Shown: positions 3,458-33,625 of the stretch, piece after piece
How the letters are laid out: each line of letters opens with the position of its first letter
Numbering within the stretch: the stretch's first letter is position 1
From: a virus
DNA length: 64,000 bases
Direction: 5' to 3' (one strand)
Virus record (IMG/VR): IMGVR_UViG_3300032516_000003
Location: 1,341-65,340 of that record
Notes under the pieces: generated by a model
Seen by the model: only the letters and a program-made list of their open reading frames with translations
Told to the model about the DNA's origin: nothing
Databases searched by the model: none
Translations under genes and position numbers: made by a program

Positions 3458-4081
3458 ATGGCTCACATCGCCGATCTCATCCAAGCCTGCCGGGTCTGCT
3501 GCTGGCCGGCTCTCGTCACCCTGGTCCCCGAGCTCAAGACTCTGGAGGGCCAGTCCCAGCACCGGGGAGCTGGCGTCGATGTGGCTGAGCACACTCGCCT
3601 CATGCTGGTCCAGTGCCCCAAGGAGGATGATGTCCTGCTTCTTGCCTGCTTGCTGCACGACCTGGGGAAGCCCCAGACGGCCGAGCCCAACCGCAAGGGC
3701 GGCTGGCAATTCCCCGACCATGCCGCAGTCGGTGCCGCCATGGTCCAGCCGATTCTGGAGCGCTTCGACGGTGTGGACACTGACCTGAGCATCCGGCTGC
3801 ATGGCCTGGTGTTCGCCCACATGATGCCACATGGGGGCGAGATCTTGGACATGGGGCCGGACACCGAGCGCTTGATCGACCTGGCCGAGCTCGACTCGGG
3901 CTCCTTCCTCAACCGCTCGGTGGGCAAGGTCCGGGAGCGCTTCAATGCGCTGCGGGTCAAGCACCACCTCCCCGAGCGGCCCTTCCCCCCGCCAGAGCCC
4001 ATCTCCAGGGCTCTGGAGGAGTACCAACGAGTCTGCCTGCAGGGCAAGGAGCCGCGCTATGATGGACCTCAAGCGGCCTGA
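3458..4081 (+). CDS. HD-domain metal-dependent phosphohydrolase
   Basis: LLLACLLHDLGKP motif (H...HD...K) typical of HD superfamily; GGAG SD; ATG 3458. Confidence 0.75.
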   Translation: MAHIADLIQACRVCCWPALVTLVPELKTLEGQSQHRGAGVDVAEHTRLMLVQCPKEDDVLLLACLLHDLGKPQTAEPNRKGGWQFPDHAAVGAAMVQPILERFDGVDTDLSIRLHGLVFAHMMPHGGEILDMGPDTERLIDLAELDSGSFLNRSVGKVRERFNALRVKHHLPERPFPPPEPISRALEEYQRVCLQGKEPRYDGPQAA

Positions 4082-4207
4082 GATCGTCTGTCCCCACCGT
4101 GGGGACAGACGCCTTCCCTGGCTCTGGCTGCCCCGCCCCATGAAGTTCCCCCAGAAGCGTCGGCGGAAGATCCGGCTCATCCGGATCCGGCCGATCGTCT
4201 TCAACTA

Positions 4208-4227
4208 GGCCCTCGGGGCCTTTCCTT
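4208..4227 (+). terminator. hairpin GGCCC-TCG-GGGCC + TTTCCTT
   Basis: ends + strand HD-gene operon. Confidence 0.5.
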
Positions 4228-4246
4228 AGGATGCAGGCTAAGGAAA

Positions 4247-4265
4247 GGGGCCGGCTGCCGGCCCC
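4247..4265 (-). terminator. hairpin GGGGCCGG-CTG-CCGGCCCC (T-rich on minus side)
   Basis: ends minus gene 4275-4523; convergent terminator pair. Confidence 0.5.
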
Positions 4266-4274
4266 TTCTGCGGT

Positions 4275-4523
4275 TCACGGCAGTAGTCGGATGTTCCTGA
4301 TGCCGTCTACACACATGCTCCACAACGTCCTGAAGATGATGTAGCCATCGCGAAGGCCGAAGGTAGCCTGCCAGCGACTTCTCCCAGAGACTGCTTTGAC
4401 TGTCACTTCTGCGTTGCATACGTCGATGTAGGCTGAGACATCGGCGGTACGTAGCACCCCGCGGCTATCCTTGTACTGCAATGCGGGCCACTGCTGATCA
4501 CTATGCGGATTCGGGCAAGACAT
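4275..4523 (-). CDS. hypothetical protein, 82 aa
   Basis: AGGAGG SD before ATG 4523 (minus); convergent with HD operon, hairpin terminators 4208-4265 between them. Confidence 0.6.
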   Translation of the reverse strand: MSCPNPHSDQQWPALQYKDSRGVLRTADVSAYIDVCNAEVTVKAVSGRSRWQATFGLRDGYIIFRTLWSMCVDGIRNIRLLP

Positions 4524-4544
4524 GAAGGCACCTCCTGAATGACC

Positions 4545-4554
4545 TTCTTATACC
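4545..4554 (-). promoter_or_regulatory. GGGTATAAGA -10-like box
   Basis: minus strand, 22 nt upstream of ATG 4523. Confidence 0.4.
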
Positions 4555-4576
4555 CCAATAATGATCATTCGATCAG

Positions 4577-4586
4577 GTATAAGTCT
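4577..4586 (+). promoter_or_regulatory. AGGTATAAGT -10-like box
   Basis: 51 nt upstream of ATG 4637; divergent from 4545 box. Confidence 0.4.
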
Positions 4587-4636
4587 AGTAGAACAGAAGT
4601 TTTACTTTCGTCCGAAACGATCAGAAAGGAGGATCG

Positions 4637-5023
4637 ATGCGGTATCAGATCGTAGATGCCCTCTACGGCGTGCACATGAACACCGTGACCCCTCGGCTTG
4701 TCAGCGAACTTCTGGCGGAACACGGTTATGATCTTCGGGATCTGAAGCCCGGGGAGATGATCCCGATCTTCAACAACAGCTGGGAGTGGGGCGGACTCTG
4801 CGATAGCCGTACTCCGCCCCGCTTCAAGGTCGTCGTCAACGAAGACGGCCTGATCTACCTGAAACAGCCGGTCCACGAAGTGCTCGACCAGATCAGCGGG
4901 CCGCTGAAGTTCAGTATCTACATCCACGCCCACATCACCTGTCCAGCGAAGATCCGGGAGCAGCTGGCCAACTCGCTGGCGAAGCAGAGGCTTGCACTAC
5001 AGAACAAAAGGAGGAAAGCATGA
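4637..5023 (+). CDS. hypothetical protein, 128 aa
   Basis: AAAGGAGGA SD; AT-rich promoter region upstream with GGTATAAG box. Confidence 0.7.
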   Translation: MRYQIVDALYGVHMNTVTPRLVSELLAEHGYDLRDLKPGEMIPIFNNSWEWGGLCDSRTPPRFKVVVNEDGLIYLKQPVHEVLDQISGPLKFSIYIHAHITCPAKIREQLANSLAKQRLALQNKRRKA

Positions 5024-5481
5024 ACTGGAAGAAGATCAAAGGCCGGGGCACCGGCAGTCTCTTCAGCCTGCAGGATCGGCTGAAAATGATGCAGGACCGC
5101 ACGAACGGGCGCAATATCCTCGACATAGCAAAGGAGACCGGCTGCTCCCAGTCGACCCTCGTCACCATGACGGTTCTCATGGTGAAGGAGGGCTACCTCA
5201 GAAGGGTCGGCCACAAGAAGTACCGCATGACCGAGAAGGGGAAGGAGGCGCTGGCGGAGCGGCCGCGGCCGAAGATGGAACTGGTGGAGAGGCCGGGCGG
5301 GGTGGAGCTCAAGATCACGCCGGCCTCGCAGATGAAGGTGGAGGAGACTCCATCGGCGGCCATCAACGACAAGATGAAAAGCCTGGAGGAGGAACTCGCC
5401 TACCAGCAGGCCTCACGGCCGTTCCTCCTCAACATGGGGTGGAAAGTCAGGCTGATGATGGAACTGGAGAAGGCCAAGTGA
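5020..5481 (+). CDS. winged-helix DNA-binding protein
   Basis: AAAAGGAGGAAAGC-ATG; ILDIAKETGCSQSTLVTMTVLMVKEGYLRRVGHKKYRMTEKG is MarR/wHTH-like; ATGA coupling to upstream gene. Confidence 0.7.
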   Translation: MNWKKIKGRGTGSLFSLQDRLKMMQDRTNGRNILDIAKETGCSQSTLVTMTVLMVKEGYLRRVGHKKYRMTEKGKEALAERPRPKMELVERPGGVELKITPASQMKVEETPSAAINDKMKSLEEELAYQQASRPFLLNMGWKVRLMMELEKAK

Positions 5482-5711
5482 GGGTGATCCATCGAGGAGG
5501 ACACCCCGCCCAGGTCATCATCACCTCAGGTCCAGATCTGGAATCCGACGTCCGTTCGAACACGCCGGACTACCAGCCCGATCCCTGGGGTGACTACGAC
5601 CAGGAGAAGAACGGCTACACCAACTCGGAGACCCATGAGTTCTCCCCGGGTCCCGATCGCCCCGCTAAGAAACTCCCACCTCGCGGCCCCCGGGGCCGCT
5701 TCACCACCTGA
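5478..5711 (+). CDS. possible small gene (GTG start), 77 aa
   Basis: in-frame GTG overlapping stop of 5020 gene; GC3-rich; no clear SD; terminator hairpin follows at 5759-5776. Confidence 0.3.
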   Translation: MRVIHRGGHPAQVIITSGPDLESDVRSNTPDYQPDPWGDYDQEKNGYTNSETHEFSPGPDRPAKKLPPRGPRGRFTT

Positions 5712-5758
5712 AAGAGATGCTCACTCCTGGGGCATAAGGATCATGACAGGAGATGGTT

Positions 5759-5776
5759 ACCCCTTCGGGGGTTTCC
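5759..5776 (+). terminator. hairpin ACCCC-TTCG-GGGGT + TTCC
   Basis: after gene ending 5711; GGGCATAAGG box lies 25 nt upstream. Confidence 0.5.
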
Positions 5777-5790
5777 GTTAACCCGTAGAC

Positions 5791-6276
5791 CTACTTGAAG
5801 AGAAGACGGGCCGGCAACTGGGTCTGGTGCATCGGCGGCATGGCCTTGTGGACCGGGCGGGCCTTCAAGGCCTTCAGGGCCACCTCGGCGGGCTGGGAAG
5901 CTGGCGGAGGCTCGGGGCGACGCGGCTGCCCGACAGGCCGCGTTCTTGACCTCTCAGCCCGGCGAAGCTCGTCCTCGACCCGATGCCGCAGGCCGATCTC
6001 CAATACCGCGGCCCGTACCTGGTTGAGTGCCTCACCCTGCTCGTTGACCTGCTTGCGCAAGGCTTCGAGGTTGGCCGGTAGTTCCTTGTTGATCGTCTGG
6101 GCCACCTTCTGATACACCGCATCGACCGTCTTCTCGCTGGCCTTCTGCTGCCAGACCCCGAAGACACCTACGATCGCGGCCATGACGATCGGCACCAGGA
6201 GTTTCTCGATGGTCGTCTCCCAGATCTTGATCAGGAGGCCGTATAGGAAGGAGTGCTTCTTGGTCTCATCGCTCAT
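5791..6276 (-). CDS. membrane-anchored coiled-coil protein, 161 aa
   Basis: start MSDETKK at 6276; one TM helix (LLVPIVMAAIVGVFGVW) then heptad-rich helix and Pro-rich C-terminus; longer upstream extension has no SD. Confidence 0.55.
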   Translation of the reverse strand: MSDETKKHSFLYGLLIKIWETTIEKLLVPIVMAAIVGVFGVWQQKASEKTVDAVYQKVAQTINKELPANLEALRKQVNEQGEALNQVRAAVLEIGLRHRVEDELRRAERSRTRPVGQPRRPEPPPASQPAEVALKALKARPVHKAMPPMHQTQLPARLLFK

Positions 6277-6305
6277 GTGACCATAGTACAACAAGCGTAG
6301 GATTC

Positions 6306-6315
6306 TGGCATAAGA
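6306..6315 (+). promoter_or_regulatory. TGGCATAAGA extended -10-like box
   Basis: 28 nt upstream of ATG 6343. Confidence 0.4.
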
Positions 6316-6342
6316 AAGACATTCTACCCAGGAGGTTATCCC

Positions 6343-6654
6343 ATGGCCCTTAGTGGAGATCGCTGCGCCTGGTACCGCTGCACAGGCGAGATCGACGTCA
6401 TCTATGGTGCCTGCTTTGCCAAGAACGGGGAGCGGCTGAACATCCCGCTCTGTGAGCGACACTGGGGCAAGATCGCCGGCCTAGGATCAATCGAGGCGGG
6501 TGAGGTCTTGCAGAAGAGTGTGCCCAACATTCGGATCGACATCGGGAGGACTAATGAAGCCGCTCTACAAGACCACCATCGTCATCTGGTCCGAGTACGA
6601 CCCGACGGAGAAGTACGAGCTCAAGGAGCTCGCCAACGAGGCCGAGCAGGGTGA
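6343..6654 (+). CDS. hypothetical Cys-containing protein
   Basis: CAGGAGG SD; TGGCATAAGA box 28 nt upstream; last ~30 codons lose GC3 and are overlapped by next gene. Confidence 0.5.
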   Translation: MALSGDRCAWYRCTGEIDVIYGACFAKNGERLNIPLCERHWGKIAGLGSIEAGEVLQKSVPNIRIDIGRTNEAALQDHHRHLVRVRPDGEVRAQGARQRGRAG

Positions 6655-6751
6655 CGCCTACTGCAGCAAGATGCGGGCGACCCTGATCGACAAGCCCCAC
6701 GAGGACCCCGACTGGGACAACACCGAATTCTTCGACGACGTGGAGGATTGA
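6554..6751 (+). CDS. hypothetical acidic protein, 65 aa
   Basis: GGGAGG SD, ATG 6554; good GC3. Confidence 0.55.
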   Translation: MKPLYKTTIVIWSEYDPTEKYELKELANEAEQGDAYCSKMRATLIDKPHEDPDWDNTEFFDDVED

Positions 6752-6753
6752 TC

Positions 6754-7011
6754 ATGGCGTGCGCAAGGCTTAGTCACGAAGATCTGAGGGCCCTTCGAAA
6801 GCACGGCCACCCCAATTTCTGGGAGGTGGCCATCTACGGCAAGGCATCGCGCCCAGATTCTGTGACCGTAGAGTGTACCAAGTGTGGGGAGGTGCTGATT
6901 GAATTGGTGAGCTTGGACCTCGAACGGCAGAATCGAGAGCTCCTCCGCTACCTGAGGGAGTCGGGGAAGCGCATGGCCAAGGATTTCTTTCCGGATGCAG
7001 TCAAGCGATGA
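6754..7011 (+). CDS. hypothetical protein (CTKCGE zinc-knuckle like)
   Basis: GGAGGA 6 nt before ATG 6754 (TTG 6748 also possible). Confidence 0.6.
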   Translation: MACARLSHEDLRALRKHGHPNFWEVAIYGKASRPDSVTVECTKCGEVLIELVSLDLERQNRELLRYLRESGKRMAKDFFPDAVKR

Positions 7012-7078
7012 GCCAGACGACGTTCCCCCTGTCCCTGTGGTGCTGCCCTCACTGCCGTAGCGGTCACTGGAGGAGGCC

Positions 7079-7606
7079 ATGAGCGAAAAGAGACTGGTCA
7101 GAATCTACATCGGCGGGCAGGTCAGCCCCGAGACCGCCAGGACGCTGGTGGAGCGCATCAAGGCCATCCACGGGGCCCTGGATGACTACTGGTCCACTCC
7201 GCCCCAGGACGTCGACCAGCTGGTCGCTTACGCAGTCAAGGAGAAGTGGGTCGGACTGAGACATGAAGACTGGCCGCAGGCCTTCGAGGAGCTGGAGGAG
7301 TGGTGCCAGGAGGAGCGCATCCCCTACGACGAGGTCCTGCCGCCCTTCGGGGAGTTCCCAGGGGTCATCGCCTACTACCGCCCTGCCGCCCGAGTGGGAA
7401 CGAGACTGATGCCGCGGCTCAGGGTCAGCCGCAACTGTGACTTCTTCGGCAACCCCATCCTGGAGTGGAGGGAGGTCCGGAAGGTCCTGGAGATGCTGCG
7501 AACGCGCACCTTGGCGCGAGCACGAACCGCGAAGGCTGACTCCATGCTGGAGGAGCTTCTGGGCAAGGATGTCCATGAACTGCCGCCCTTCGAGATGCGG
7601 CCATGA
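7079..7606 (+). CDS. hypothetical protein, 175 aa
   Basis: GGAGGAGG SD; GC3-rich. Confidence 0.7.
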   Translation: MSEKRLVRIYIGGQVSPETARTLVERIKAIHGALDDYWSTPPQDVDQLVAYAVKEKWVGLRHEDWPQAFEELEEWCQEERIPYDEVLPPFGEFPGVIAYYRPAARVGTRLMPRLRVSRNCDFFGNPILEWREVRKVLEMLRTRTLARARTAKADSMLEELLGKDVHELPPFEMRP

Positions 7607-7887
7607 TCAAGAAGCAGATGGTGTGCTTCGATTGTGGGATGAAGATCGAAGCAAGCATCGTGCAGGCCAAGGCGCACGGATGGACGGTGTGGGTGGGAGG
7701 GGCTCGATGCAAGGCCTGCTCAGCGAAGGATGACTCCATCTCCGTCTTCATCTGGGGTGGGCCATGTAAAGGAGGGGGAGATCATAGCTGTGATGGCCCT
7801 GAGTACGAGGAAGCGCTGATGTCTACGGCTACCTGCTCGAAGTGTGGCATGCACCAGATCGACTACGACCTGCTGAGGATGCCGTGA
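7603..7887 (+). CDS. Cys-rich Zn-finger protein (CFDCGM...CKAC...CSKCGM)
   Basis: ATGA overlap with upstream gene. Confidence 0.6.
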   Translation: MIKKQMVCFDCGMKIEASIVQAKAHGWTVWVGGARCKACSAKDDSISVFIWGGPCKGGGDHSCDGPEYEEALMSTATCSKCGMHQIDYDLLRMP

Positions 7888-8057
7888 AGTACCAGGACAG
7901 CGAGTACCGCTGGCATCGGGAGCTCTGGCAGCGATTCCGCCGCGAGGTCCCCGATGACGAGACGGCGGAGAAGGTCTGCGCCATCGCAGTGGAGGAGATC
8001 GAGCGGATAATCGATCGCCATCACTGGAACAGCAACGGCATCAACTGGGACGACTGA
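7884..8057 (+). CDS. hypothetical protein (GTG start), 57 aa
   Basis: GAGGATG SD-like 4 nt before GTG 7884, which overlaps stop TGA of upstream gene. Confidence 0.4.
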   Translation: MKYQDSEYRWHRELWQRFRREVPDDETAEKVCAIAVEEIERIIDRHHWNSNGINWDD

Positions 8058-8065
8058 GGTGACCA

Positions 8066-8440
8066 ATGACCAATGCTGAGTGGTTTGTCTACGACCCGAT
8101 TGATGGCGCATCATTCTACGCGACTGAGGTGGAGGCCCGCGATCGAGCCGAAGCACTACTCGAAGAGGAGCGGGACGATTCGGGGGATGGCTGGAATGAG
8201 CATGTCAACCAGATCTGCTACGGGCGGGTCATGGGTCGAGTTGAGCAGATCAAGTGTGCGCCCGCCCCGGAAGGCAGTGGATTCGACGAGTACTGGGACT
8301 TTGCCCTCAAGACACTGGCTGACCCGGGAGGACAAGCCATGGCGGATGCGAGGGTGCTCGCCCACAGCTACAAGCATGACTCGAACCCGCCACAGGATGT
8401 GGTAGCCCGTGCCTTAGCGTACCCAGTGAGGTCAATCTGA
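8066..8440 (+). CDS. hypothetical acidic protein, 124 aa
   Basis: GAGGTGACCA-ATG. Confidence 0.6.
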   Translation: MTNAEWFVYDPIDGASFYATEVEARDRAEALLEEERDDSGDGWNEHVNQICYGRVMGRVEQIKCAPAPEGSGFDEYWDFALKTLADPGGQAMADARVLAHSYKHDSNPPQDVVARALAYPVRSI

Positions 8441-8455
8441 TTTGTGGAGGAGCGT

Positions 8456-8617
8456 ATGAGCAAGAATGGGATGATACCTGGACAGGAACCGTACACGCAG
8501 GAAGAGCTCCAGCGGCTACACAAGGCTCTGGAGGAGGCCTGTGAGGCAACAGAGTACTTCACTGAGGACGAACTGGAGGAGGCAGCCGATGAGTGTCGAC
8601 TTCCACGTCGAGGGTGA
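8456..8617 (+). CDS. small acidic ORF, 53 aa
   Basis: GTGGAGGAGCGT-ATG; below ORF-table cutoff. Confidence 0.4.
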   Translation: MSKNGMIPGQEPYTQEELQRLHKALEEACEATEYFTEDELEEAADECRLPRRG

Positions 8618-8930
8618 ACACTTCGACCCGGAGGCCCCTCAGAATCACTCGGTCTGGATCAATCTCTGCAACCGCAACGCTGGTGACCTCTTGAACTGGC
8701 TGGAGATTCCACGTGATGGGCTCTATGGTCAGATCAGGGGCACGGAGTTGGCAGCCAAGTGCCGCCGGCGGTTGTGGGACGTGCCACGGAATCACGACCA
8801 GGGACTGGAGACGGTCACCGACGGCCGGGTCACTGACTGCGGCCGCGAAGACGACTACCTGAGGACCCGCACCCGGTGGCTCCTGGCCATGGCTGAGCGG
8901 GCTGGAGAGAGGATGGTCTTGTTTGGCTAG
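8589..8930 (+). CDS. hypothetical protein, 113 aa
   Basis: GGAGGAGG SD before ATG 8589. Confidence 0.6.
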   Translation: MSVDFHVEGEHFDPEAPQNHSVWINLCNRNAGDLLNWLEIPRDGLYGQIRGTELAAKCRRRLWDVPRNHDQGLETVTDGRVTDCGREDDYLRTRTRWLLAMAERAGERMVLFG

Positions 8931-8974
8931 GAGATGGTACTATAGTCTCCATTCCCAACCATGGAGGGGTCCCG

Positions 8975-9298
8975 ATGAAAGTCACCTTGCGGGACAAGCT
9001 CGGCGCTGATCTGGACAAGCTCCGGCTGCAGCTTCCCGCGCAGGAAGAACCCAAACCACTCGTTGGTGTTGTCGTTCCCGATCCTCGCCCCAAGCCATCC
9101 GCAGACCCACTGCACGTTCATCTCAAGCGCGAAGCGAAAGAGCCCCACGACCCGGAACTTCTCCAGCAGATTGATGAGGGTCAACTCGTCGGAGAAATTC
9201 TCGACTGGCTCTTCGCCAAGGGCTACTTCAAGGACAGTGTCATTCGTACCTCCCTGATCGTTGCCCAGCGGGAGTTCTTCAAGGAGCGCGGACGATGA
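8975..9298 (+). CDS. hypothetical protein, 107 aa
   Basis: GGAGGGG SD. Confidence 0.6.
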   Translation: MKVTLRDKLGADLDKLRLQLPAQEEPKPLVGVVVPDPRPKPSADPLHVHLKREAKEPHDPELLQQIDEGQLVGEILDWLFAKGYFKDSVIRTSLIVAQREFFKERGR

Positions 9299-9969
9299 TC
9301 TCCGCCAGGGACTTCTACAAGCCCCTGATCTGGGTCGAGGGCATCATCGGTGCCGGCAAGTCGACCTTCGCTCGCGAGGTAGGAAGCCGCCTGGAGCTCC
9401 GCATTCTGGAAGAGCCGGTGGACTCCAACCCATACCTCAAGGTGTTCTACGAGGACCCAGCCAAGTATGCCTTCGGCATGCAGATCCATCTCCTGCACCG
9501 GCGGTACATCCAGCAGCGCCTGGCCGCGGATGAAGCCACCAGTCTGGGTGGATACAAGGGCGCCATCCTGGACCGCTCACTGTCAGGGGATCGAGTGTTC
9601 GCCAAGCTGCACCACGTGGCTGGCAACATCACCTACCTCGACTGGGTCACCTACGAGATGGCCTACAACTTCATGTGCCGCAGCCTGCTGCCGCCGACGT
9701 TGCTAGTCTTCCTCGATGTCCAGCCGGAGACGGCCTATGCGCGCATGAAGAAGCGTGATCGGACGGTAGAGGCCAAGGTGTCACTCGACTACCTAGTCGC
9801 CCTGCGCCAGGGCTACCAGGAGTTGCTGACCGAGGCTGAGCGCGGGCTGATGCCGTGGGCTCATGCGGTGCGCGTCACGCGTATCGTCTGGGACCCCGAC
9901 ATCATCACCGTCGGACACTGGGACGCTGTCGCTCGGACAGTTCTGGACGCGTGCCGCTTCCTCACTTGA
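9295..9969 (+). CDS. deoxynucleoside kinase (dNK/dGK family)
   Basis: P-loop GIIGAGKST near N-terminus, LDRSLSGDRVF and arginine-rich lid (ARMKKRDRTVE) as in the deoxynucleoside kinase family; ATGA coupled. Confidence 0.8.
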   Translation: MISARDFYKPLIWVEGIIGAGKSTFAREVGSRLELRILEEPVDSNPYLKVFYEDPAKYAFGMQIHLLHRRYIQQRLAADEATSLGGYKGAILDRSLSGDRVFAKLHHVAGNITYLDWVTYEMAYNFMCRSLLPPTLLVFLDVQPETAYARMKKRDRTVEAKVSLDYLVALRQGYQELLTEAERGLMPWAHAVRVTRIVWDPDIITVGHWDAVARTVLDACRFLT

Positions 9970-9970
9970 T

Positions 9971-9980
9971 CCGAGGTATA
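9971..9980 (+). promoter_or_regulatory. AGGTATAAGA -10-like box
   Basis: start of the 134-nt leader of gene 10104. Confidence 0.4.
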
Positions 9981-10103
9981 AGAGATGTAGGATCAAAGGA
10001 GGATAGCCATGAGAAGAGAGCACGCTCCTCGCGCTCTCGCTAGCCACGAAGCTCATCAACCACGTCGGCCAGGCGGTGGTCGATACGCAACTCAAGGTGA
10101 AAC

Positions 10104-10574
10104 ATGCCAAAGAGCAAGGTCAACGAGAAGAAGAAACGGGGTGACGGATCGGTCCAGCTCCTCGCCCGATTCGCGGGGCTGGGGTCCAAGGACTCGGAGG
10201 AGAACACCAAAGATCTGTTCTTCGCGGCGTTGAACAACGTCGGCTTCATGCGACTACTGATGTGGATCATCCGTGACTGGTTCTTCAGGAAGCTGCTGAA
10301 CTCCAGACCAGAGGGCTTCGGGAAGTATCCTACCTTCTGGCAGTTGATCGGGTTGGCGGTCTCGAAGATGTTCAAGCACAACCTGGAGCGAGGGGACAAC
10401 TACAAGAAGATGGAGGTGGCCGACATCCTGGGAAGGAAGCGGCGCGTCGATGCCCAGATCGAGGAAGCAGTCAACAACAACCGGCCCATCGCAGGGCTGG
10501 TGGCCGACTCCTACAACTACGGCTGGATGCTAGTGGAGAAACTGGGGGAAATGCAGCCTCCAGAGTTCGAGTGA
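10104..10574 (+). CDS. hypothetical protein, 156 aa
   Basis: good GC3; first ATG after in-frame stop; 134-nt leader with strong SD and atypical-codon ORF (see findings); terminator 10578-10607 follows. Confidence 0.7.
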   Translation: MPKSKVNEKKKRGDGSVQLLARFAGLGSKDSEENTKDLFFAALNNVGFMRLLMWIIRDWFFRKLLNSRPEGFGKYPTFWQLIGLAVSKMFKHNLERGDNYKKMEVADILGRKRRVDAQIEEAVNNNRPIAGLVADSYNYGWMLVEKLGEMQPPEFE

Positions 10575-10577
10575 TCA

Positions 10578-10607
10578 AGCGAGGCCCACAAGGGCCTCGC
10601 TTTCTTT
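10578..10607 (+). terminator. hairpin AGCGAGGCCC-ACAA-GGGCCTCGCT + TTCTTT
   Basis: 10-bp perfect stem plus T-run after gene 10104-10574. Confidence 0.65.
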
Positions 10608-10631
10608 AGCCCTGACACGGGGAGGCGAAGG

Positions 10632-10892
10632 ATGTTGAATGGCAAGCGGGAGAAGTTGTACAAGGCCTATCTGGAGATCATCCGAGACTGTCGGGTCATG
10701 AACAACCGATCGCAGGCTAAAGTAGCGAGGGCGGCCGGCCTGAGCGGGAAGTACGTCAACATGCTCGAACTCGGCCGCCGCTCGCCGGCATTGGAAAGTC
10801 TGCTGGCACTGTGTTCCGCTGCGGGAGTGGGTAGGGCCACGGCTACCCAGCTGGTGACCGAAGTGCTAGACTCATTCGACTGGGAAGAGTGA
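10632..10892 (+). CDS. XRE-family (Cro/CI-type) HTH regulator
   Basis: GGGAGG SD; RSQAKVARAAGLSGKYVNMLELGRRSP HTH_XRE pattern. Confidence 0.75.
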   Translation: MLNGKREKLYKAYLEIIRDCRVMNNRSQAKVARAAGLSGKYVNMLELGRRSPALESLLALCSAAGVGRATATQLVTEVLDSFDWEE

Positions 10893-11146
10893 TGGAGAAC
10901 CTGTGGAGAGTCGGCTTCATGCCGCGGGCACTGGAACTGGTCACCCTGATGTCGGGGTTGGTCGAGATCCTCGACGTCTACTGGCATGTCGAAGACAGCG
11001 CCCTGATCTTCTTGGTGAAGAGCAAGAGCCACGAGTTGTTCCGTCAGGACTCCTTGCGGGGTACCCCGACCAAGCGGGTGCAGATGTCCAACCAGCCGCT
11101 GTACGTCGACCTAGCTGGTCTCAACGAGACCCGCCAGGTCCAGTAG
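10889..11146 (+). CDS. hypothetical protein, 85 aa
   Basis: ATGA overlap with XRE gene. Confidence 0.55.
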   Translation: MMENLWRVGFMPRALELVTLMSGLVEILDVYWHVEDSALIFLVKSKSHELFRQDSLRGTPTKRVQMSNQPLYVDLAGLNETRQVQ

Positions 11147-12022
11147 CGAATTCGCCGCCCCACGCAGCGGATCTATGTCGGTCTTCTTGATCTCGTCCCA
11201 GTCCAGTGGTTGCTTGTCGATGTAGTTGGTGAGCTCGTCGGCCTTCGACTGCAGACCCTTCGCCGCGGTGATGAGAGCCTGCAGGTTGCGGATGACCACG
11301 ACCGTCGGGGACTGAGTGGTCTTGAGCTTCTTGTCCTTCAACCGTTCCTTGCTCTCCTCCTGAGTCTCTTCCAGCATCACCCGCAGTTCTTCCTGCTGCT
11401 GCTTCTTGGGTAGGCGTGTGAGGCGGTTGGCCTGGTCGATCGTGATGAGTCCACGGTCGAGAGCCCGGCTGGCGGAAGGACACAGGTTCGCCGCCCGCTT
11501 TAGCGTCTCGCGGGCCTTGCTAGGGCTCACGCCTAGTTCCTTCGCCAGTTCCTTCACTGCTGTCTCTCGTGGCAAGGTCGGCCGGCCTGGCGATGGCTTC
11601 GTGCCCGAGCGCTTGTGCCGCTCAGCTTCGTCGGCAGCCTTCTTGGCCGCCTCGGTTTCGAGCAACTCTCCATAGCGCTTGAGACCCCAGCGCAGTTCGC
11701 TTTCCTTGGGGCTGCGGCGGTGCAGGTTCTCGATGATCGACAGGATCTCGGCGGTGCGGTCGTCGACTTGAGCTACCGCACAACGCGCCTCCTTGATCCC
11801 CTCCGCCTTCATGGAGAGGTAGCGCACCCGGCCGGCCAGGAGCTCGTAGGTGCCACTGATCTTGCCCTTCACCTGCCGGACTAGCAGCTGGTGCAGCTGA
11901 CCGAACTTGGCGATGCTGCCACCAAGTTCATCGATGTCTTTCGGGGTGATCTCTCGCTGCCAGTGGACGGGGCTGATATGGATGGCAGCGAGTGGGATGA
12001 TCTTGTCCTTGTACGGTATCAT
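11111..12022 (-). CDS. ParB-like nuclease-domain protein
   Basis: AGGAGG SD before ATG 12022 (MIPYKDK); N-terminal IPLAAIHISPVHWQRE...LGGSIAKFGQLHQLLVRQV...YELLAGRVRYL matches ParB/Srx N-domain, then HTH (TAVKELAKELGVSPSKARETLKRA). Confidence 0.8.
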   Translation of the reverse strand: MIPYKDKIIPLAAIHISPVHWQREITPKDIDELGGSIAKFGQLHQLLVRQVKGKISGTYELLAGRVRYLSMKAEGIKEARCAVAQVDDRTAEILSIIENLHRRSPKESELRWGLKRYGELLETEAAKKAADEAERHKRSGTKPSPGRPTLPRETAVKELAKELGVSPSKARETLKRAANLCPSASRALDRGLITIDQANRLTRLPKKQQQEELRVMLEETQEESKERLKDKKLKTTQSPTVVVIRNLQALITAAKGLQSKADELTNYIDKQPLDWDEIKKTDIDPLRGAANSLLDLAGLVETS

Positions 12023-12053
12023 CAGCGCCTCCTGGGTAAAGGAGTGGGTGGGC

Positions 12054-12092
12054 ACACCCGTAGACATGCCCACCCACTCGCTCTCGGTCTAG
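12054..12092. promoter_or_regulatory. perfect 13-bp inverted repeat GAGTGGGTGGGCA-N12-TGCCCACCCACTC
   Basis: between histone-fold gene stop and ParB-like gene SD; no T-tract on either side. Confidence 0.5.
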
Positions 12093-12286
12093 AAGTCCTC
12101 CAGCCGCACCGTGGCACGGCCGTTGGCCTTGCAGCGTCCGATTGCTTCGTTGACCCTGTCGGCCATCCACTGGTGGATGCCTTCCGCTGTCTCGCCGGCG
12201 AGGCGCAGACCGGCATCGCTGATGAGCTCCTTGAGCGAGGACGTGACGATGAGACGGGGTGCTTCCTTCACTTCCTTCTTGGCCAT
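12089..12286 (-). CDS. histone-fold protein (archaeal/bacterial histone-like), 65 aa
   Basis: AGGAGGAAGCA-ATG; full-length collinear similarity to HMf-type histone fold (LISDAGLRLAGETAEG...NGRATVRLEDF vs IIKDAGAERVSDDAR...GRKTIKAEDIE). Confidence 0.7.
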   Translation of the reverse strand: MAKKEVKEAPRLIVTSSLKELISDAGLRLAGETAEGIHQWMADRVNEAIGRCKANGRATVRLEDF

Positions 12287-12325
12287 TGCTTCCTCCTGGG
12301 TGAACCGGGGACCATCCCCGGAGTC

Positions 12326-12754
12326 TCAGCACTGCTTGTTGACGGCGAACATCACGGATGCGCGAAGGATGTCCTCGCAGACCCGCCGGCGCATGACGTC
12401 CTCGTCCTTGATCGAGGGACGAACCACGTGTACATCGAAACAGGAATACGACTCCTTGTCAACCGCTTGCTTCCAGCGGTAGCTCTGGACGATCCACCCC
12501 TTCACTACCCGCGTCTCCTGCCTGGTCAGTGGTGGCAGATGCGGACCGGGGTCCTCCTTCAGCCACTCCACCATCACATAGATGTCCAGAGGTGATACCC
12601 AGAGTGCCGCCTTGAAGTCCCACTCCCTGTATCGCCAGACCTGGGCGAGCTCTGGTAGGGGGCCGTGGGTAGGGTGTAGTGGGTCTCCGATCGCCTCATC
12701 TGGCCACTCCCCCAGGGGCGGTATGATGATGTCATAGAGTAGCTTGGGCTGCAT
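12326..12754 (-). CDS. hypothetical protein, 142 aa
   Basis: GGGAGG SD before ATG 12754 (MQPKLLYD); first gene of the minus-strand trio. Confidence 0.6.
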   Translation of the reverse strand: MQPKLLYDIIIPPLGEWPDEAIGDPLHPTHGPLPELAQVWRYREWDFKAALWVSPLDIYVMVEWLKEDPGPHLPPLTRQETRVVKGWIVQSYRWKQAVDKESYSCFDVHVVRPSIKDEDVMRRRVCEDILRASVMFAVNKQC

Positions 12755-12884
12755 GTTACCTCCCAACGTCAGTGATGCTCTTATCACACATTCCTGTGGT
12801 GTTTTCTAAGGCCGGGAAATCCCAACGATCCTGTGGCATAAGCCCGGTACGCACTGCTGATCGCTAAATTGTTCACTTTGGGGC

Positions 12885-12913
12885 TTGACAAAGCCGTGGT
12901 GATCGATCATAGT
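12885..12913 (+). promoter_or_regulatory. sigma70-type promoter TTGACA-17-CATAGT
   Basis: upstream of H1-like gene; spacer/-10 GATCGATCATAGT nearly identical to promoter at 863. Confidence 0.55.
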
Positions 12914-12949
12914 GTTTCTGTCAAGGCCGATCAACCCAGGAGGTACGGC

Positions 12950-13456
12950 ATGTACAACACGGACCAGTGGAAGATCATGAAGCAGCTCGCCGGCTCACTC
13001 CCGAAGCGTGAGTCCCTCAAGATCGGGGACATCAAGGACAAGTGCTTCAAGTCTGCCCCCAACGACCGCGTGGTGCGGAACGCCATCCGCAAGCCGGTCG
13101 CCGAGGGCCACGTCGAGATCGCCGATCGTGGCGACTATCGGCTGACGGCGAAGGGCGCCGCCTTCTGCCAGAAGATGGAGAAGGAGGGCTTCAAGCCGGC
13201 GTCAGTGCGTCAGATGGCGAAGCCGTCTCAATCGATCAAGAAGAGTGCCAAGAAGGCCGCCCCGAAGAAGGTGGCCAAGAAGAGTGCCAAGAAGGCCGCC
13301 CCGAAGAAGGTGGCCAAGACCAACGGAGCCAAGGTCGAGTCCAAGCCGACCGAGAAGTCCCAGGCCCCCGAACCCAAGAAGAGCTCGGTCAAGATCCCCC
13401 GCCCCAAGAAGGACGAGTCGGCAGCTGCCGTTCCTCCGTCCACTCTCAGCTTCTAG
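12950..13456 (+). CDS. H1/Hc1-like DNA-binding protein: wHTH-like N-domain plus Lys/Ala/Pro repeat tail
   Basis: CAGGAGG SD, ATG 12950; tail KKSAKKAAPKKVAKKSAKKAAPKKVAK...KKSSVKIPRPKK; downstream of TTGACA-17-CATAGT promoter; terminator hairpin 13483-13513. Confidence 0.75.
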   Translation: MYNTDQWKIMKQLAGSLPKRESLKIGDIKDKCFKSAPNDRVVRNAIRKPVAEGHVEIADRGDYRLTAKGAAFCQKMEKEGFKPASVRQMAKPSQSIKKSAKKAAPKKVAKKSAKKAAPKKVAKTNGAKVESKPTEKSQAPEPKKSSVKIPRPKKDESAAAVPPSTLSF

Positions 13457-13482
13457 CAGCATCCTCCTACTGCTTGATCATC

Positions 13483-13513
13483 AAAGGCCTCACGAGGAGG
13501 CCTTTGGTGTTTC
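13483..13513 (+). terminator. hairpin AAAGGCCTC-N5-GAGGCCTTT + GGTGTTTC
   Basis: after H1-like gene. Confidence 0.55.
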
Positions 13514-13523
13514 AGGAGATCGC

Positions 13524-13727
13524 ATGGCCGACAAACCCGAGAACGAAGAACTCACTCGCTTGGCAGTGCTGATGATAAAGCGGCGTGATCAGATTTTGCT
13601 TCTGGACAAGCTCACCGCCCTAGAGAAACGACTGGACAAGTTGTGCCGCCGGATGAAGGACTGTGAGGAGCTAGTTGCCTGGTCACGGCGGCGTAGGCCG
13701 ATCAAGAAGACGAGGAGGAAGCGATGA
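13524..13727 (+). CDS. hypothetical small basic protein, 67 aa
   Basis: CAGGAGATCGC-ATG. Confidence 0.5.
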   Translation: MADKPENEELTRLAVLMIKRRDQILLLDKLTALEKRLDKLCRRMKDCEELVAWSRRRRPIKKTRRKR

Positions 13728-14179
13728 ACGAGAAGATCGATGTGATCGATGACCAGGAGCGACGCGCTCAGATCCTGCTGTTGGGGGACGCACTCTTTCA
13801 CTTGCTCTCAGAGCGGTTTTCGAGCTACTGTCTGGACAACGAGGGAGAACGCGCCGACCTATCGGTGGCACTCGCCGAGTGGCTGATCGTAGCGGACAAG
13901 ACGACCGAGATCACGCAGCAGATCACACTGCCGCGTGCAAAGAGCAGGGTAGGGTTCAATGTGGTCGATGAGGTGACAGGCAAGAGAATCGTCTACCTGG
14001 AACTCGAACGCGACCGGATGATGACCGATGGCGACTTTCTCCAGCTTCAGAACTTCTTCTGGACCACCATCGGCCTAGCGATCGTTGATCACCCTGAGGT
14101 CATCAGAACGCTGCAGGCCGCCGGCATCAAGGTCACCCGTGGTGGTGACGACGAGGGAGGACAGCTAGCACCCGCCTGA
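13724..14179 (+). CDS. hypothetical protein, 151 aa
   Basis: GGAGGAAG SD, ATGA coupling. Confidence 0.65.
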   Translation: MNEKIDVIDDQERRAQILLLGDALFHLLSERFSSYCLDNEGERADLSVALAEWLIVADKTTEITQQITLPRAKSRVGFNVVDEVTGKRIVYLELERDRMMTDGDFLQLQNFFWTTIGLAIVDHPEVIRTLQAAGIKVTRGGDDEGGQLAPA

Positions 14180-14211
14180 ACGCCGTCGGGCATCTCCGGC
14201 AGGAGGAACGA

Positions 14212-14664
14212 ATGCTGGAGATCACACTTGCAGCACTCCTACTGCTTCACCCAGACCCAGATTCGAACGCGGTACAGCACTACGCCCAGTACATCACGGA
14301 GGGGGGAGAACGGGTCGACATCGACCCGCTACTGGTAGTGGCGCTCATCCATCGGGAAGGCCGATGGAATCCCAAGGCTAAGAGTGGCAAAGGCGACTTC
14401 GGGCTGATGCAGATACGGGCACGGTCCTACAAGCGCTTCCGCAACAACCCCAAGAAGCTCCTTGACCCCCAGGTGAACATCACGGTAGGAATCGAGACTC
14501 TCGCCATGTGGCGAGAGTTCCACCAGAAGAACTGCGGCAAGAAGCGGCACGACTGGTGGGCGCACTATCAACACGGGATGCACGTAGGCAACAATCGATC
14601 AGCGCAGCGTGTCGAGCGACTGTGGCACTGGCTGCGTGAACGAACCAGGAGACATGAGACATGA
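14212..14664 (+). CDS. lytic transglycosylase (SLT domain) with N-terminal hydrophobic segment
   Basis: GGCAGGAGGAACGA-ATG; ALIHREGRWNPKAKSGKGDFGLMQI matches SLT catalytic region (E...S...GLMQ). Confidence 0.8.
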   Translation: MLEITLAALLLLHPDPDSNAVQHYAQYITEGGERVDIDPLLVVALIHREGRWNPKAKSGKGDFGLMQIRARSYKRFRNNPKKLLDPQVNITVGIETLAMWREFHQKNCGKKRHDWWAHYQHGMHVGNNRSAQRVERLWHWLRERTRRHET

Positions 14665-15422
14665 CCTTCCCCATCATCGGCCTCTGCGGTGTAGCAGGTG
14701 TCGGCAAGGACGTAGTGGCTGACTTCTTCGTCGAGAAGGGCTTCGCCAAGGTCGCCTTCAGCGATCCGATGAAGCGCTTCATCCAGTATCTCTTCAACCT
14801 CGATGACGAGCAGCTGTGGGGTCCCTCGAAGACCCGCAACGAGGAGATCACCTTCACTGAAGAGGAGTGGGTTGGCATCACCCAGCGCATGGAGCAGGAG
14901 GCCTGGGACTTCGTCGAGGAGACGCGGATGAAGTGCCAGGTGCCGGCTTTGCTCGGTCTCTGGGACTGGCTCGGGGTCCTCTACCACCAGCAGAAGATTT
15001 CGCCGCGCATCATCCTGCAGACGTTGGGCACCGAGTGGGGACGCACCCTAGATCTGCACGTCTGGACGGACTACCTGCATCGGGTAGTCCGCCCCCAAAT
15101 GGAGATAGGGTACACCTACTCGGCTCAGAAGGGAGTGGAGGAGCGACGGCAAGAGTTTGCCGGCATCATCATCCCAGATCACCGCTTCGCCAATGAGGTC
15201 ATGGCCACTCGTGAAGCCGGCGGCTACATGATTCGCGTACACCGACCTGGCCGGCCGCAAGAGATAACTCTCCCAGGCATCCAGGGGCACGCCAGTGAGA
15301 AGGAGCAGGAGACTCTGGCGGCTGACTTCTTCCACAGCGAACTCTTGATGCCGGAGGGGCTGGATCGAGCACATGCAGTTCTGGAGGACTTTTTCTTCAA
15401 GCGCCCGTGGGGTGTGGGCTAG
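14661..15422 (+). CDS. deoxynucleoside-monophosphate kinase (T4 gp1-like)
   Basis: IIGLCGVAGVGKDVVADFF vs T4 gp1 LIFLSGVKRSGKDTTADFI; IIIPDHRFANEV...MIRVHRPG vs YIVPDTRQDHEM...VIHVVRPG. Confidence 0.8.
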   Translation: MTFPIIGLCGVAGVGKDVVADFFVEKGFAKVAFSDPMKRFIQYLFNLDDEQLWGPSKTRNEEITFTEEEWVGITQRMEQEAWDFVEETRMKCQVPALLGLWDWLGVLYHQQKISPRIILQTLGTEWGRTLDLHVWTDYLHRVVRPQMEIGYTYSAQKGVEERRQEFAGIIIPDHRFANEVMATREAGGYMIRVHRPGRPQEITLPGIQGHASEKEQETLAADFFHSELLMPEGLDRAHAVLEDFFFKRPWGVG

Positions 15423-15428
15423 AGAGAC

Positions 15429-15459
15429 GGGGTGGGCCGGACGACACCGGCCCACCCCA
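15429..15459. terminator. hairpin GGGGTGGGCCGG-N7-CCGGCCCACCCC between convergent genes
   Basis: 12-bp perfect GC stem; weak T-tracts. Confidence 0.5.
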
Positions 15460-15465
15460 CCGAGA

Positions 15466-15870
15466 TCAGACCTTCTCAATCTCGTAGTTCGTGCGGTTCC
15501 CGTCTTTCGTCTCCTTGACCAGGACGGGGATCCCAGTTGGGAACTCCTCCCACATCTTCGCTTCGATCGCGGCGCGGTGTGCCTCGTCGAAGACGTCATC
15601 TCCCCTGTACTTGTGGCTGTGGTCGTTGTCGCGGAAAGGCACCCACAGGTGTGGGCGGCGCCCTTCCACGACTTCGACAATGACGGTGGGTGTCAGGAAA
15701 CCGTGCCGATGGAGCGTACCGTCATGACGTTCCTCGTCGATGGGCGGCAGGTAGCGAGTGTCGTGTCCAGAGACTACGCAGTTGTAGATCTTCACCGGGA
15801 TGGTCGCAGTCGTTTCCTTCTCGGACTTGTCCTTCTTGGTCGTTTCCTTCTTGGTGGTCTTCGTGGTCAT
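15466..15870 (-). CDS. hypothetical protein with Thr/Lys-rich N-terminus, 134 aa
   Basis: GGAGGACAGC-ATG; convergent to dNMP kinase with perfect 12-bp-stem hairpin 15429-15459 between; CGGTATAAGG box upstream. Confidence 0.65.
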   Translation of the reverse strand: MTTKTTKKETTKKDKSEKETTATIPVKIYNCVVSGHDTRYLPPIDEERHDGTLHRHGFLTPTVIVEVVEGRRPHLWVPFRDNDHSHKYRGDDVFDEAHRAAIEAKMWEEFPTGIPVLVKETKDGNRTNYEIEKV

Positions 15871-15912
15871 GCTGTCCTCCGGCTGAAGGCTGATGGTTCA
15901 CTTCGTGTTTAC

Positions 15913-15922
15913 CTTATACCGT
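15913..15922 (-). promoter_or_regulatory. CGGTATAAGG -10-like box
   Basis: minus strand, 43 nt upstream of ATG 15870. Confidence 0.4.
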
Positions 15923-15933
15923 GGGAGGATCAA

Positions 15934-16539
15934 ATGTTGATTGGGATCGATGAGGCCGGCATGGGCACCTTGGCCGGCCCCATGACTGCCGCAGTGGTGG
16001 TCCTGGCCGACGATGCACAGATCAAAGGTGTCCGTGACTCCAAGACCATGAACAACGAGCAGCGGGAGGAAGTCGCGGCCAGGATCATGACCGCAGCGTT
16101 GTTTTACCAGGTCGGTTCTCGGGAAGCTGAGGACATCGACAAGCGGGGGCTCTCCAAGTGCTGGCTGGAGCTGGTCCGCGAGCTGGCCATCGCAGCCAAG
16201 GCAGCCCTGTCCGAGCAGCTGATGGACAAGCCCACGAACGAGAAGATCATCCTAGACGGCAACCGGCTGATCGGGTTACCCTATGTGATACCCGTGGTCA
16301 AGGCCGATGCCACGCATCTCGCCGTCTCCGCCGCGTCGATCCTCGCCAAGTACAAGCAAGTGTGCGCAATGATCGACGCCCATAGGCTCTATCCAGCCTA
16401 CGGCTTCTTAGAACATCACGGCTACTGTACGATCAACCACAAGACCAAACTGAGGGAGCGGGGACCATGTCCAATCCATCGCAGGAGCTTCCGACCGGTG
16501 AGGGACCTTACTCGGTCTTCTGGTTCCGGACGCGGCTAG
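15934..16539 (+). CDS. rnhB: ribonuclease HII
   Basis: GTGGGAGGATCAA-ATG; IGIDEAGMGTLAGPMTAAVVVL, DSKTM, ASILAKY and C-terminal HRRSFRPV are RNase HII hallmarks. Confidence 0.9.
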   Translation: MLIGIDEAGMGTLAGPMTAAVVVLADDAQIKGVRDSKTMNNEQREEVAARIMTAALFYQVGSREAEDIDKRGLSKCWLELVRELAIAAKAALSEQLMDKPTNEKIILDGNRLIGLPYVIPVVKADATHLAVSAASILAKYKQVCAMIDAHRLYPAYGFLEHHGYCTINHKTKLRERGPCPIHRRSFRPVRDLTRSSGSGRG

Positions 16540-27658: not shown

Positions 27659-28018
27659 ATGCTGCTGGTCCGGACCTACACGGCGCCGTCTCCGATTCAC
27701 GGCACTGGCCTGTTCGCAGCCGAACCCATTCCGGAAGGGACCGCCATCTGGGAGTTCACCCCAGGGCTAGATCAGTTGCTGTACCACCAGCCCGAGGGTG
27801 AGACGAAGGACTGGTCTTGGCGGGAAGAGGACTGCTGGGTGGTCCCCCAGGATGATGCCCGCTTCATCAACCACTCTCTCACCCCCAGTGGGAAAAGTGG
27901 TGGCAGTCGTCATGGAATCGACCGTGCTGCGCGGGACATCCTGCCTGGGGAAGAGATCACGCTGGACTACGCTACTTTCGATCTGGACTACCCAGAGTAC
28001 GAGCAGGCATTGAGGTAA
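27659..28018 (+). CDS. SET-domain protein (putative protein-lysine methyltransferase)
   Basis: SPIHGTGLFA..IPEGTAIWEF...ARFINHSLTPSGK....AARDILPGEEITLDY follows SET-domain landmarks (GxG, NHS, post-SET ExxY) as in minimal viral/bacterial SETs. Confidence 0.8.
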   Translation: MLLVRTYTAPSPIHGTGLFAAEPIPEGTAIWEFTPGLDQLLYHQPEGETKDWSWREEDCWVVPQDDARFINHSLTPSGKSGGSRHGIDRAARDILPGEEITLDYATFDLDYPEYEQALR

Positions 28019-33085: not shown

Positions 33086-33270
33086 GATCTACCGCCCGCG
33101 GGGGGATCGAGGGCCAGTCGCAAATCCTTGACAAACCGCTTCATCACCCCCCAGTCACTCGGCGGTGTCACCGTGGCCCAGTAGACCAGCAGGTGTCTCA
33201 CCCGCTGCTCGCGCTCACGTAGTTCGTCGATCTCGCGGCGCAGTAGTCGCATGGCCTTTGGCTCGCTCAT
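33079..33270 (-). CDS. hypothetical protein, 63 aa
   Basis: ATGA coupling to upstream tiny gene. Confidence 0.5.
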
Positions 33271-33487: not shown

Positions 33488-33625
33488 GAACTTAGCCTCC
33501 TGACGTTGATGCCGTTGTGGTGGAGCATAGCGAGACAAGCCAAACAGCACTGGAACTCCGGATCTCTCTTCCGGTTCCCCTTGTAGCGGCCAGTTGACTT
33601 GCCTCGACAAACGGGGAACTGAACT

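Follow-up and report, generated by a model that had tools for sequence, protein, structure and literature searches.

A gp1/Dnk-family deoxynucleotide kinase in an uncultured phage most likely belongs to an ordinary nucleotide-supply toolkit

Does a relative of the T4 deoxynucleoside monophosphate (dNMP) kinase gp1, encountered in the genome of a new phage, indicate that the DNA of this phage carries a modified base? We asked this question of a 64,000-nucleotide (nt) stretch of viral DNA (IMG/VR record IMGVR_UViG_3300032516_000003, positions 1,341 to 65,340; hereafter the window), for which a preliminary description had read three genes jointly as the hint of a non-canonical nucleotide pathway:

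3458-4081, plus strand: stand-alone HD/HDIG phosphohydrolase, 207 amino acids (aa) (PF01966 HD, E 5.1e-8).
9295-9969, plus strand: dNK-family deoxynucleoside kinase, 224 aa (PF01712, E 4.1e-38, 131.6 bits against a cutoff of 27).
14661-15422, plus strand: gp1/Dnk-family dNMP kinase, 253 aa (PF21448 DNMK, phrog_139).

All three open reading frames (ORFs) are indeed found at these coordinates on the plus strand and belong to the families named, as judged with Pfam, PHROGs and the PDB. As for their meaning, the best explanation is that a novel phage carries an ordinary toolkit for the supply of deoxynucleoside triphosphates (dNTPs), of the kind known from T5, and that its virion DNA is most likely canonical. 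We give this reading a probability of about 0.72.

The 14661-15422 product is a true homologue of gp1. It matched Pfam family PF21448 over model positions 2-200 of 232 (E 3.4e-8; score 33.8 bits, gathering cutoff 27.1) and, among the PHROGs, phrog_139, "deoxynucleoside monophosphate kinase" (E 3.7e-35). Compared with T4 gp1 as a single sequence, the match was weak (phmmer E 0.012), pairing kinase residues 5-61 with gp1 3-60 and residues 168-201 with gp1 170-203; these are the same two stretches that had been aligned by eye in the preliminary description. When a profile of 37 homologues was searched against the whole PDB, the sole match was the gp1 structure 1DEK (E 3.5e-9, residues 2-204). The same structure was the top Foldseek match of an AlphaFold model of the kinase (pLDDT 92.1), at E 6.7e-9 and a TM-score of 0.66-0.69, with the next structure following at E 1e-3, about five orders behind. 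As modeled, the protein has the gp1 fold, that is, a P-loop nucleoside monophosphate kinase core with the gp1-specific helical insert. The catalytic motifs are intact: residues G15-K16-D17, R59, S114/R116/Q120/G123/T124, D173-x-R175 and E179 are invariant among this kinase, T5 Dnk, T4 gp1 and three relatives.

While profile and fold both bear out the homology with T4 gp1, the kinase proved to be no closer to gp1 than to Dnk (T5.043), the corresponding enzyme of phage T5, which is a PF21448 protein as well. Comparison of the kinase clade by hhalign gave 98.1% (E 9.9e-14) for T5 Dnk and 97.1% (E 6.6e-11) for T4 gp1, and identities in a MAFFT alignment were 27% and 24%, respectively (28% to Dnk by hhalign). 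The motifs LQTLGTEWGR and PDHRFANE are nearer to their T5 counterparts (LQLVGTELGR and TDVRFPNE) than to those of T4 (MQALGTDL and PDTRQDHE). With Dnk, the kinase has GLxGxAGSGKDxVA, ISPRxxLQxxGTExGR and DxRFxNE in common; with T4 gp1 (1DEK/1DEL), it has the fold, the P-loop and the PD-x-R core in common. On these comparisons, the kinase appears equidistant from the two enzymes or slightly nearer to Dnk. Its central helical insert is unlike that of Dnk, and its gene neighborhood differs too, comprising an SLT lytic transglycosylase and an RNase HII where T5 has spanins and a protease. At the level of the whole phage, the likeness to T5 extends to a dNMP kinase, a predicted 5'-deoxynucleotidase, a tRNA array and HNH endonucleases.

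The substrates of the kinase can be predicted only from its family. T5 DNA is unmodified. T4 gp1 is annotated to act on hydroxymethyl-dCMP (hm-dCMP), dTMP and dGMP, to the exclusion of dCMP and dAMP, while T5 Dnk is reported to phosphorylate dAMP, dGMP, dCMP and dTMP (Mikoulinskaia 2003). A 2024 preprint further describes dNMP kinases as widespread over phage families and active on canonical dNMPs. Both T5 Dnk and the phage records at large contradict the premise of the preliminary description that phages with unmodified DNA rarely carry such an enzyme. Searches with tblastn traced relatives of T5 Dnk in 1,131 deposited phage records, among them those of T5-like phages and of siphoviruses of 43-50 kb, and relatives of T4 gp1 in 1,551 records; taken as a whole, the family is found in the deposited genomes of well over 2,000 phages. 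In IMG/VR, at least 522 contigs, many of just 30-60 kb, encode a relative of the kinase. A large protein database contained 335 homologues, and inspection of the longer ones (300-352 aa) for fusion partners yielded none that was informative. Since many phages with canonical DNA carry a member of the family, a gp1-like kinase is no marker of modified DNA; its presence is compatible with modification, not indicative of it.

Compatibility leaves room for a pathway as in T4, in which a thymidylate synthase (TS) homologue encoded outside the window would make hm-dCMP, hm-dUMP or 5-hydroxy-dCMP, and the phage would need a dedicated kinase because host kinases refuse this product. Such a role would suit a true homologue of an enzyme that takes hm-dCMP along with dTMP and dGMP, and there is precedent for it in RB69 and DLP3, whose dNMP kinases are required alongside TS homologues for 5-hydroxy-dC in DNA. 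We looked for the missing partners among the precomputed Pfam matches of all genes called in some 100 kb of the genome, 52% of its 193.7 kb, namely, the window plus about 17.6 kb to its left and about 18 kb to its right. No Pfam match to TS, ThyX, dUTPase, MazG, dCTPase, glycosyl- or methyltransferases, TGT/DpdA, QueC/D/E or PurZ was present in this part of the genome. The hydroxymethylase, glycosyltransferases and queuosine-like genes that the preliminary description proposed to look for elsewhere in the genome were likewise without a Pfam match in the portion inspected, and of the T4 set, none of gp42 hydroxymethylase, gp56 dCTPase and the glucosyltransferases is in evidence there. About 45 other ORFs of the window were compared with PHROGs and Pfam; almost all were without a match and so neither support nor exclude modification enzymes.

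The viewed genome also gave no match to a ThyA sequence used solely as a probe. The probe works, as it found a 52% identical ThyA in an IMG/VR locus. This locus comes from a set of 80, each covering 10 kb to either side of a relative of the kinase (1.19 Mb in total), and is the only one of the 80 with a TS-family gene within 10 kb (52% identity to Escherichia coli ThyA). Although 48% of the genome lies outside the view, the T4-like pathway is in our estimation very unlikely, given that the kinase is at least as near to the enzyme of a canonical-DNA phage as to gp1, that its relatives so rarely neighbor a TS gene, and that no TS homologue, dCTPase, MazG or glycosyltransferase was matched in roughly 100 kb. 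In addition, the purge of a restriction site described next would presumably not have been selected for if a protective base had replaced every C.

The site in question is CTCGAG, the XhoI-type hexamer. It does not occur once in the window, where a maximal-order Markov model predicts 27.1 copies, and no other of the 4,096 hexamers is depleted as strongly; dinucleotide shuffles gave an expectation of 34.4 +/- 6.1. Across the 99.7 kb of viewed genome, there are again 0 copies against 43.5 expected. A close relative likewise lacks the hexamer throughout 11.4 kb, while 20.8 kb of a distant relative (L013) contain 18 copies. Its avoidance is visible in codon choice as well: among 84 Leu-Glu dipeptides, the combination CTC-GAG is never used (20.8 expected), and CTG-GAG is overused (49 versus 28). 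Such a complete purge points to a host lineage with a restriction system specific for CTCGAG.

Other palindromes are affected to a lesser degree. Palindromes make up 8 of the 12 most depleted hexamers, with AAGCTT present 7 times instead of the expected 18.8 in the 99.7 kb and with ATGCAT and AACGTT depleted, too. Over all palindromic hexamers, the ratio of observed to expected counts is 0.85, compared with 0.81 in T5, 0.91 in T4 and 0.97 in phiR1-37, a phage with deoxyuridine-containing DNA (dU-DNA); restricting the count to T-containing palindromic hexamers gives 0.83 for this phage, with T5 at 0.81 and phiR1-37 at 0.97. The pattern suggests that type II enzymes of the host can read the DNA and speaks against a blanket protective base replacement.

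Further members of the nucleotide toolkit are encoded just upstream of the window, where they flank an unusual gene (coordinates refer to the flanking piece L095):

L095 8091-8639, 3.1-3.6 kb before the window start: dCMP-deaminase-family protein (PF00383, E 1.5e-19).
L095 10001-12583, about 5.0-7.6 kb before the window start: vault-like protein, 860 aa, with Vault repeats and MVP_shoulder.
L095 12667-13305, 7.7-8.3 kb before the window start: 5'(3')-deoxyribonucleotidase (PF06941, E 1.8e-31).

The deaminase contains the HAE and PCxxC motifs and is nearest to human dCMP deaminase (2W4L). Its homologues amount to 1,462 records, all annotated as dCMP deaminases among the matches listed, and are found in mycobacteriophages, Rhodococcus phages and many Escherichia phages. 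Homologues of the PF06941 nucleotidase occur in SPbeta/phi3T-like and other large phages. Together with the two kinases, deaminase and nucleotidase make up a fuller nucleotide toolkit than the window alone had revealed. Of the proposal that the phage remodels its dNTP pools or uses a modified base, the first half stands, as enzymes acting on dNMP and dNTP pools are encoded; the second half is left unsupported by the lack of modification-gene matches in the viewed 52% and by the avoidance of CTCGAG.

The deaminase and the nucleotidase bring a different kind of base replacement into play. Phages with dU-DNA pair a dCTP deaminase of the dCMP-deaminase family with a thymidine-nucleotide hydrolase, which in PBS1 is a PF06941 protein (Adv Sci 2025, PMC12697855). 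Both families of the PBS1 pair Dcd and Dtm (PF00383 and PF06941; PMC12697855) are present here, within 4.6 kb of each other and on either side of the vault-like gene, and so the combination of a Dcd-family protein with a dT-nucleotide hydrolase (PF06941, PF12917 or HAM1) that marks PBS1-type phages is found in this genome, at family level only. If the deaminase were to act on dCTP, the PF06941 protein as a dTMP phosphatase and the kinase on dUMP, U would replace T in the DNA. In line with such a pathway, TS, ThyX and dUTPase are all without a Pfam match in the viewed 52%; the dU-DNA deaminase of a Roseophage, like the enzyme here, is nearest to 2W4L; and the tail sheath (see below) is nearest to those of jumbo phages.

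Against this, both the deaminase family and PF06941 are common in phages, and the absence of a TS holds for 52% of the genome. dU-DNA is reported to be fully resistant at two-T sites, for example, those of HindIII, and partly resistant at one-T sites. The host of phiR1-37 has homologues of EcoRI and HindIII, and the sites in this dU-DNA phage nevertheless stay near expectation (AAGCTT, 40 versus 41; GAATTC, 25 versus 26.6), whereas T-containing sites are purged in the phage studied here. We consider it very improbable that this phage has PBS1-type dU-DNA. If it did, base-replaced genomes would extend to a new phage lineage and to a new host phylum, maybe the Myxococcota, and the bioinformatic signature proposed in 2025 would gain support. 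In a broader form, kinase, deaminase and nucleotidase might constitute either a PBS1-like T-to-U pathway or, with an unseen TS-like enzyme, a route to a 5-substituted pyrimidine, which we likewise regard as unlikely. The chance that any base at all is replaced in this genome is, in our view, small.

A third possibility shifts the purpose of the enzymes from synthesis to counter-defense. The role of the nucleotidase, perhaps shared by the HD hydrolase, would be to destroy the nucleotide substrates or signals of host immunity, while the kinases would restore dNTP pools under attack; depletion of dAMP, for example, would keep a Kongming-type system from turning the product of the phage kinase into dITP. 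Precedent comes from T5, whose 5'-deoxynucleotidase Dmp blocks Kongming, a system triggered by phage dNMP kinases, and Dmp and kinase genes co-occur. The phage here has the analogous combination of a dNMP kinase and a 5'(3')-deoxyribonucleotidase. We tested and rejected homology between the latter and T5 Dmp, as the PF06941 protein is without detectable similarity to it (BLASTP E 0.74) and T5 Dmp itself has no Pfam match. A role in counter-defense would add to nucleotide supply rather than exclude it. As the main purpose of these genes, counter-defense seems to us unlikely.

Nucleotide supply, the explanation that we favor, gives the second kinase of the window a place as well. The best PDB match of the 9295-9969 product is the deoxynucleoside kinase 8PUU (E 1.9e-31, residues 8-183), a structure to which a study of the Giardia deoxyadenosine kinase refers, followed by the deoxyguanosine kinase 2JAQ/2JAS. 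Its translation shows GIIGAGKST as the P-loop, ILDRSLSGD with the DRS motif and RMKKRDRTVE as the Arg-rich lid, all three of which are features of the non-TK1 deoxynucleoside kinases (8PUU, 2JAQ/2JAS, Drosophila dNK). It differs from them in being phage encoded and in its C-terminal ~40 residues, which are unmatched.

In the scheme we propose, the phage, which would be a fast replicator, hastens its own dNTP supply as T5 and many other large phages do. The dNK-family kinase would convert deoxynucleosides to dNMPs, and the gp1/Dnk-family kinase would convert dNMPs, whether from salvage or from the breakdown of host DNA, to deoxynucleoside diphosphates, from which the nucleoside-diphosphate kinase (Ndk) of the host would then make dNTPs. 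The dCMP-deaminase-family enzyme and the PF06941 nucleotidase would balance the pyrimidine pools. The nucleotidase may, in addition, dampen nucleotide-sensing defenses in the way T5 Dmp acts against Kongming, albeit as a nonhomologous protein. The HD protein would stand apart from the supply set, as a phosphohydrolase domain of the CCA-enzyme type serving the 3' ends of tRNA or other RNA. Family membership, intact catalytic motifs, genomic context, the spread of the family and the avoidance of sites are observations; which substrates each enzyme accepts, in what order the steps run and with what flux is probably as drawn here, and the DNA that results is probably of canonical composition.

Several points weigh against this scheme. 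The gene search covered 52% of the genome, with record positions ~51.3-144.9 kb (48%) outside the view, and most of the viewed genes are without a Pfam match and might conceal a modifying enzyme of a new kind. The product of a dCMP deaminase normally goes to a thymidylate synthase, and none was seen in the viewed 52%; moreover, a dCMP-deaminase-family protein with a PF06941 nucleotidase is precisely the PBS1 dU-DNA signature. Finally, site avoidance is an indirect sign of restrictability: T4, included as a control, is also mildly depleted of palindromes (0.91), and dU protects only partly at one-T sites.

The preliminary description had counted the HD hydrolase as a partner in pool remodeling, an assignment that the sequence matches do not sustain. 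In NCBIfam, the best match of the 3458-4081 product was the actinobacterial CCA tRNA nucleotidyltransferase (positions 239-347), with TIGR00277 HDIG just above the cutoff, and in the PDB the best matches by sequence, by profile and by fold were all to that part of the Aquifex A-adding enzyme which contains the HD domain (3WFO/3WFP). The metal ligands of the HD domain (H45, H67-D68, H88, H121 and D146) are conserved. The protein shares the HDIG motif, here LLHDLGKP, with the class II CCA- and A-adding enzymes (3WFO/3WFP and the repair domain of E. coli Cca) and differs from them in standing alone, without a nucleotidyltransferase head. Among 1.84 billion representatives, it had one close homologue; the next matches fell on residues ~220-330 of roughly 450-aa proteins, 6 of 10 tested having a PolyA_pol head. 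No protein of the SAMHD1/Dgt dNTPase, DatZ or YfbR/PF12917 type appeared among PDB matches by phmmer (E<=1), by profile (E<=0.01) or within the Foldseek top 50, and the sole Pfam match was to the generic family PF01966. A DatZ-like or YfbR-like role was considered and rejected, since all best matches were HD domains of CCA-adding enzymes.

Judged by these matches, the HD protein is of the CCA-adding-enzyme type and not a dNTPase, and it probably lies outside the nucleotide-pool set. E. coli Cca has 2',3'-cyclic phosphodiesterase and phosphatase activity. The phage protein probably acts in the repair, trimming or maturation of tRNA or RNA 3' ends, for which a large phage tRNA set would be the natural substrate. 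A tRNA search of the window itself found none. Upstream of it, ~11.8-17.4 kb before the window start (L095 16817-22434), 29 tRNA genes lie within 5.6 kb, with small HNH-like ORFs interspersed, in an array that reaches the edge of the fetched DNA.

Gene order gives no reason to read the HD, dNK and dNMP kinase genes as a pathway. They are 5.2 and 4.7 kb apart with about 25 ORFs in between; one of these encodes a helix-turn-helix (HTH) protein, and a block of others on the minus strand contains a ParB-like gene. The dNMP kinase itself sits next to a lytic transglycosylase:

10632-10892 (L001 6011-6271), plus strand: small HTH protein, between the kinases (PF01381 HTH_3, precomputed Pfam).
11111-12073, minus strand: ParB-like protein, unrelated to nucleotide metabolism (phrog_4715, E 1e-26; ParB_N in precomputed Pfam; TIGR00180, E 5e-13).
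14212-14664, plus strand: SLT lytic transglycosylase (PF01464, E 3.9e-14).
15934-16539, plus strand: RNase HII, 201 aa in the gene call of the ENA contig (L001) (PF01351, E 5.7e-30).

The stop codon of the SLT gene overlaps the start codon of the kinase gene by 4 nt (ATGA), and the kinase is translationally coupled to it. For RNase HII, the PF01351 match covers residues 190-375 of a longer ORF, 15373-16539. The order of SLT, kinase, a minus-strand ORF and RNase HII is kept in a relative (L012) whose kinase is 56% identical, while in distant relatives the kinase is part of a replication module with DnaB, primase, PolA, RecA and RusA. Within the 80 IMG/VR loci introduced above, there was no homologue of the dNK, HD, deaminase or nucleotidase proteins of this phage. 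The HD, dNK and dNMP kinase genes are not a conserved module.

As to the phage that carries these genes, it has a genome of roughly 193 kb with 60% GC (57-64% in the window) and is contractile tailed, novel and uncultured. A megablast search with 13 kb against 50,697 deposited phage genomes gave no match, and the phage thus has no close sequenced relative; an exact 52-mer likewise had no match in IMG/VR. The window proteins are present, identical and with the same gene calls, on a 193,704-bp metagenome contig in ENA (ERZ27248201, k141_3956766). By coordinate arithmetic, the two ends of this contig overlap by ~578 nt inside the window (~33,141-33,718), suggesting a circular or terminally redundant assembly, the junction of which the window spans. 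The ENA contig is longer by 39 nt at window position ~13,280, where it has a short tandem duplication, and is otherwise 99.99-100% identical.

A first hint at the host comes from the vault-like protein. It has thousands of homologues, and because the nearest of these (57-59% identical) are encoded in metagenome-assembled genomes of Kofleriaceae (Myxococcota), the host may be a member of this phylum. A shell protein resembling the major vault protein is in itself unusual for a phage.

The remaining features with recognizable matches include structural proteins, possible regulators, ligases and endonucleases:

1395-2357: 320-aa ORF with endonuclease VII/HNH PHROG matches (E 1.4e-16), missing from the gene calls of the ENA contig.
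27659-28018: 119-aa protein with a SET-domain match (PF00856, precomputed Pfam).
33626-34963, minus strand: ligase-like protein, 445 aa, with a weak match to ATP-dependent DNA ligase.
45111-45881: 256-aa protein with a weak Sigma70_r3 match (precomputed Pfam), adjoining the tail genes.
46632-48203: tail sheath, GTG being the sole possible start, with ~34% identity to the sheaths of phiKZ-like jumbo Pseudomonas phages (Noxifer, PhiPA3 and PA1C).
About 55978-57468: Kelch-repeat beta-propeller protein, 496 aa, within the structural gene block.
L095 6851-7462, upstream of the window: HNH_3 gene.
L010 12374-14425, just beyond the window end: ligase-like protein, 683 aa, with a LigD-type 3'-phosphoesterase N terminus and a ligase adenylation/OB region.

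The 1395-2357 ORF may encode a homing endonuclease, or it may be a copy in decay, and the 45111-45881 product may be a phage sigma-like factor. Two giant ORFs near the sheath, 35655-39557 (1300 aa) and 40906-44187 (~1061-1093 aa), had no Pfam or PHROG match. Phages seldom carry SET-domain methyltransferases; the 27659-28018 product was without a match in NCBIfam.

In its present form, the finding matters little beyond bringing divergent members to three well-known enzyme families. The purge of a single hexamer, visible down to the choice of synonymous codons, offers a cheap, sequence-only proxy for restriction sensitivity. The main use of this case, however, is a cautionary one: a gp1-like dNMP kinase in a phage genome should not be taken as a marker of modified DNA.

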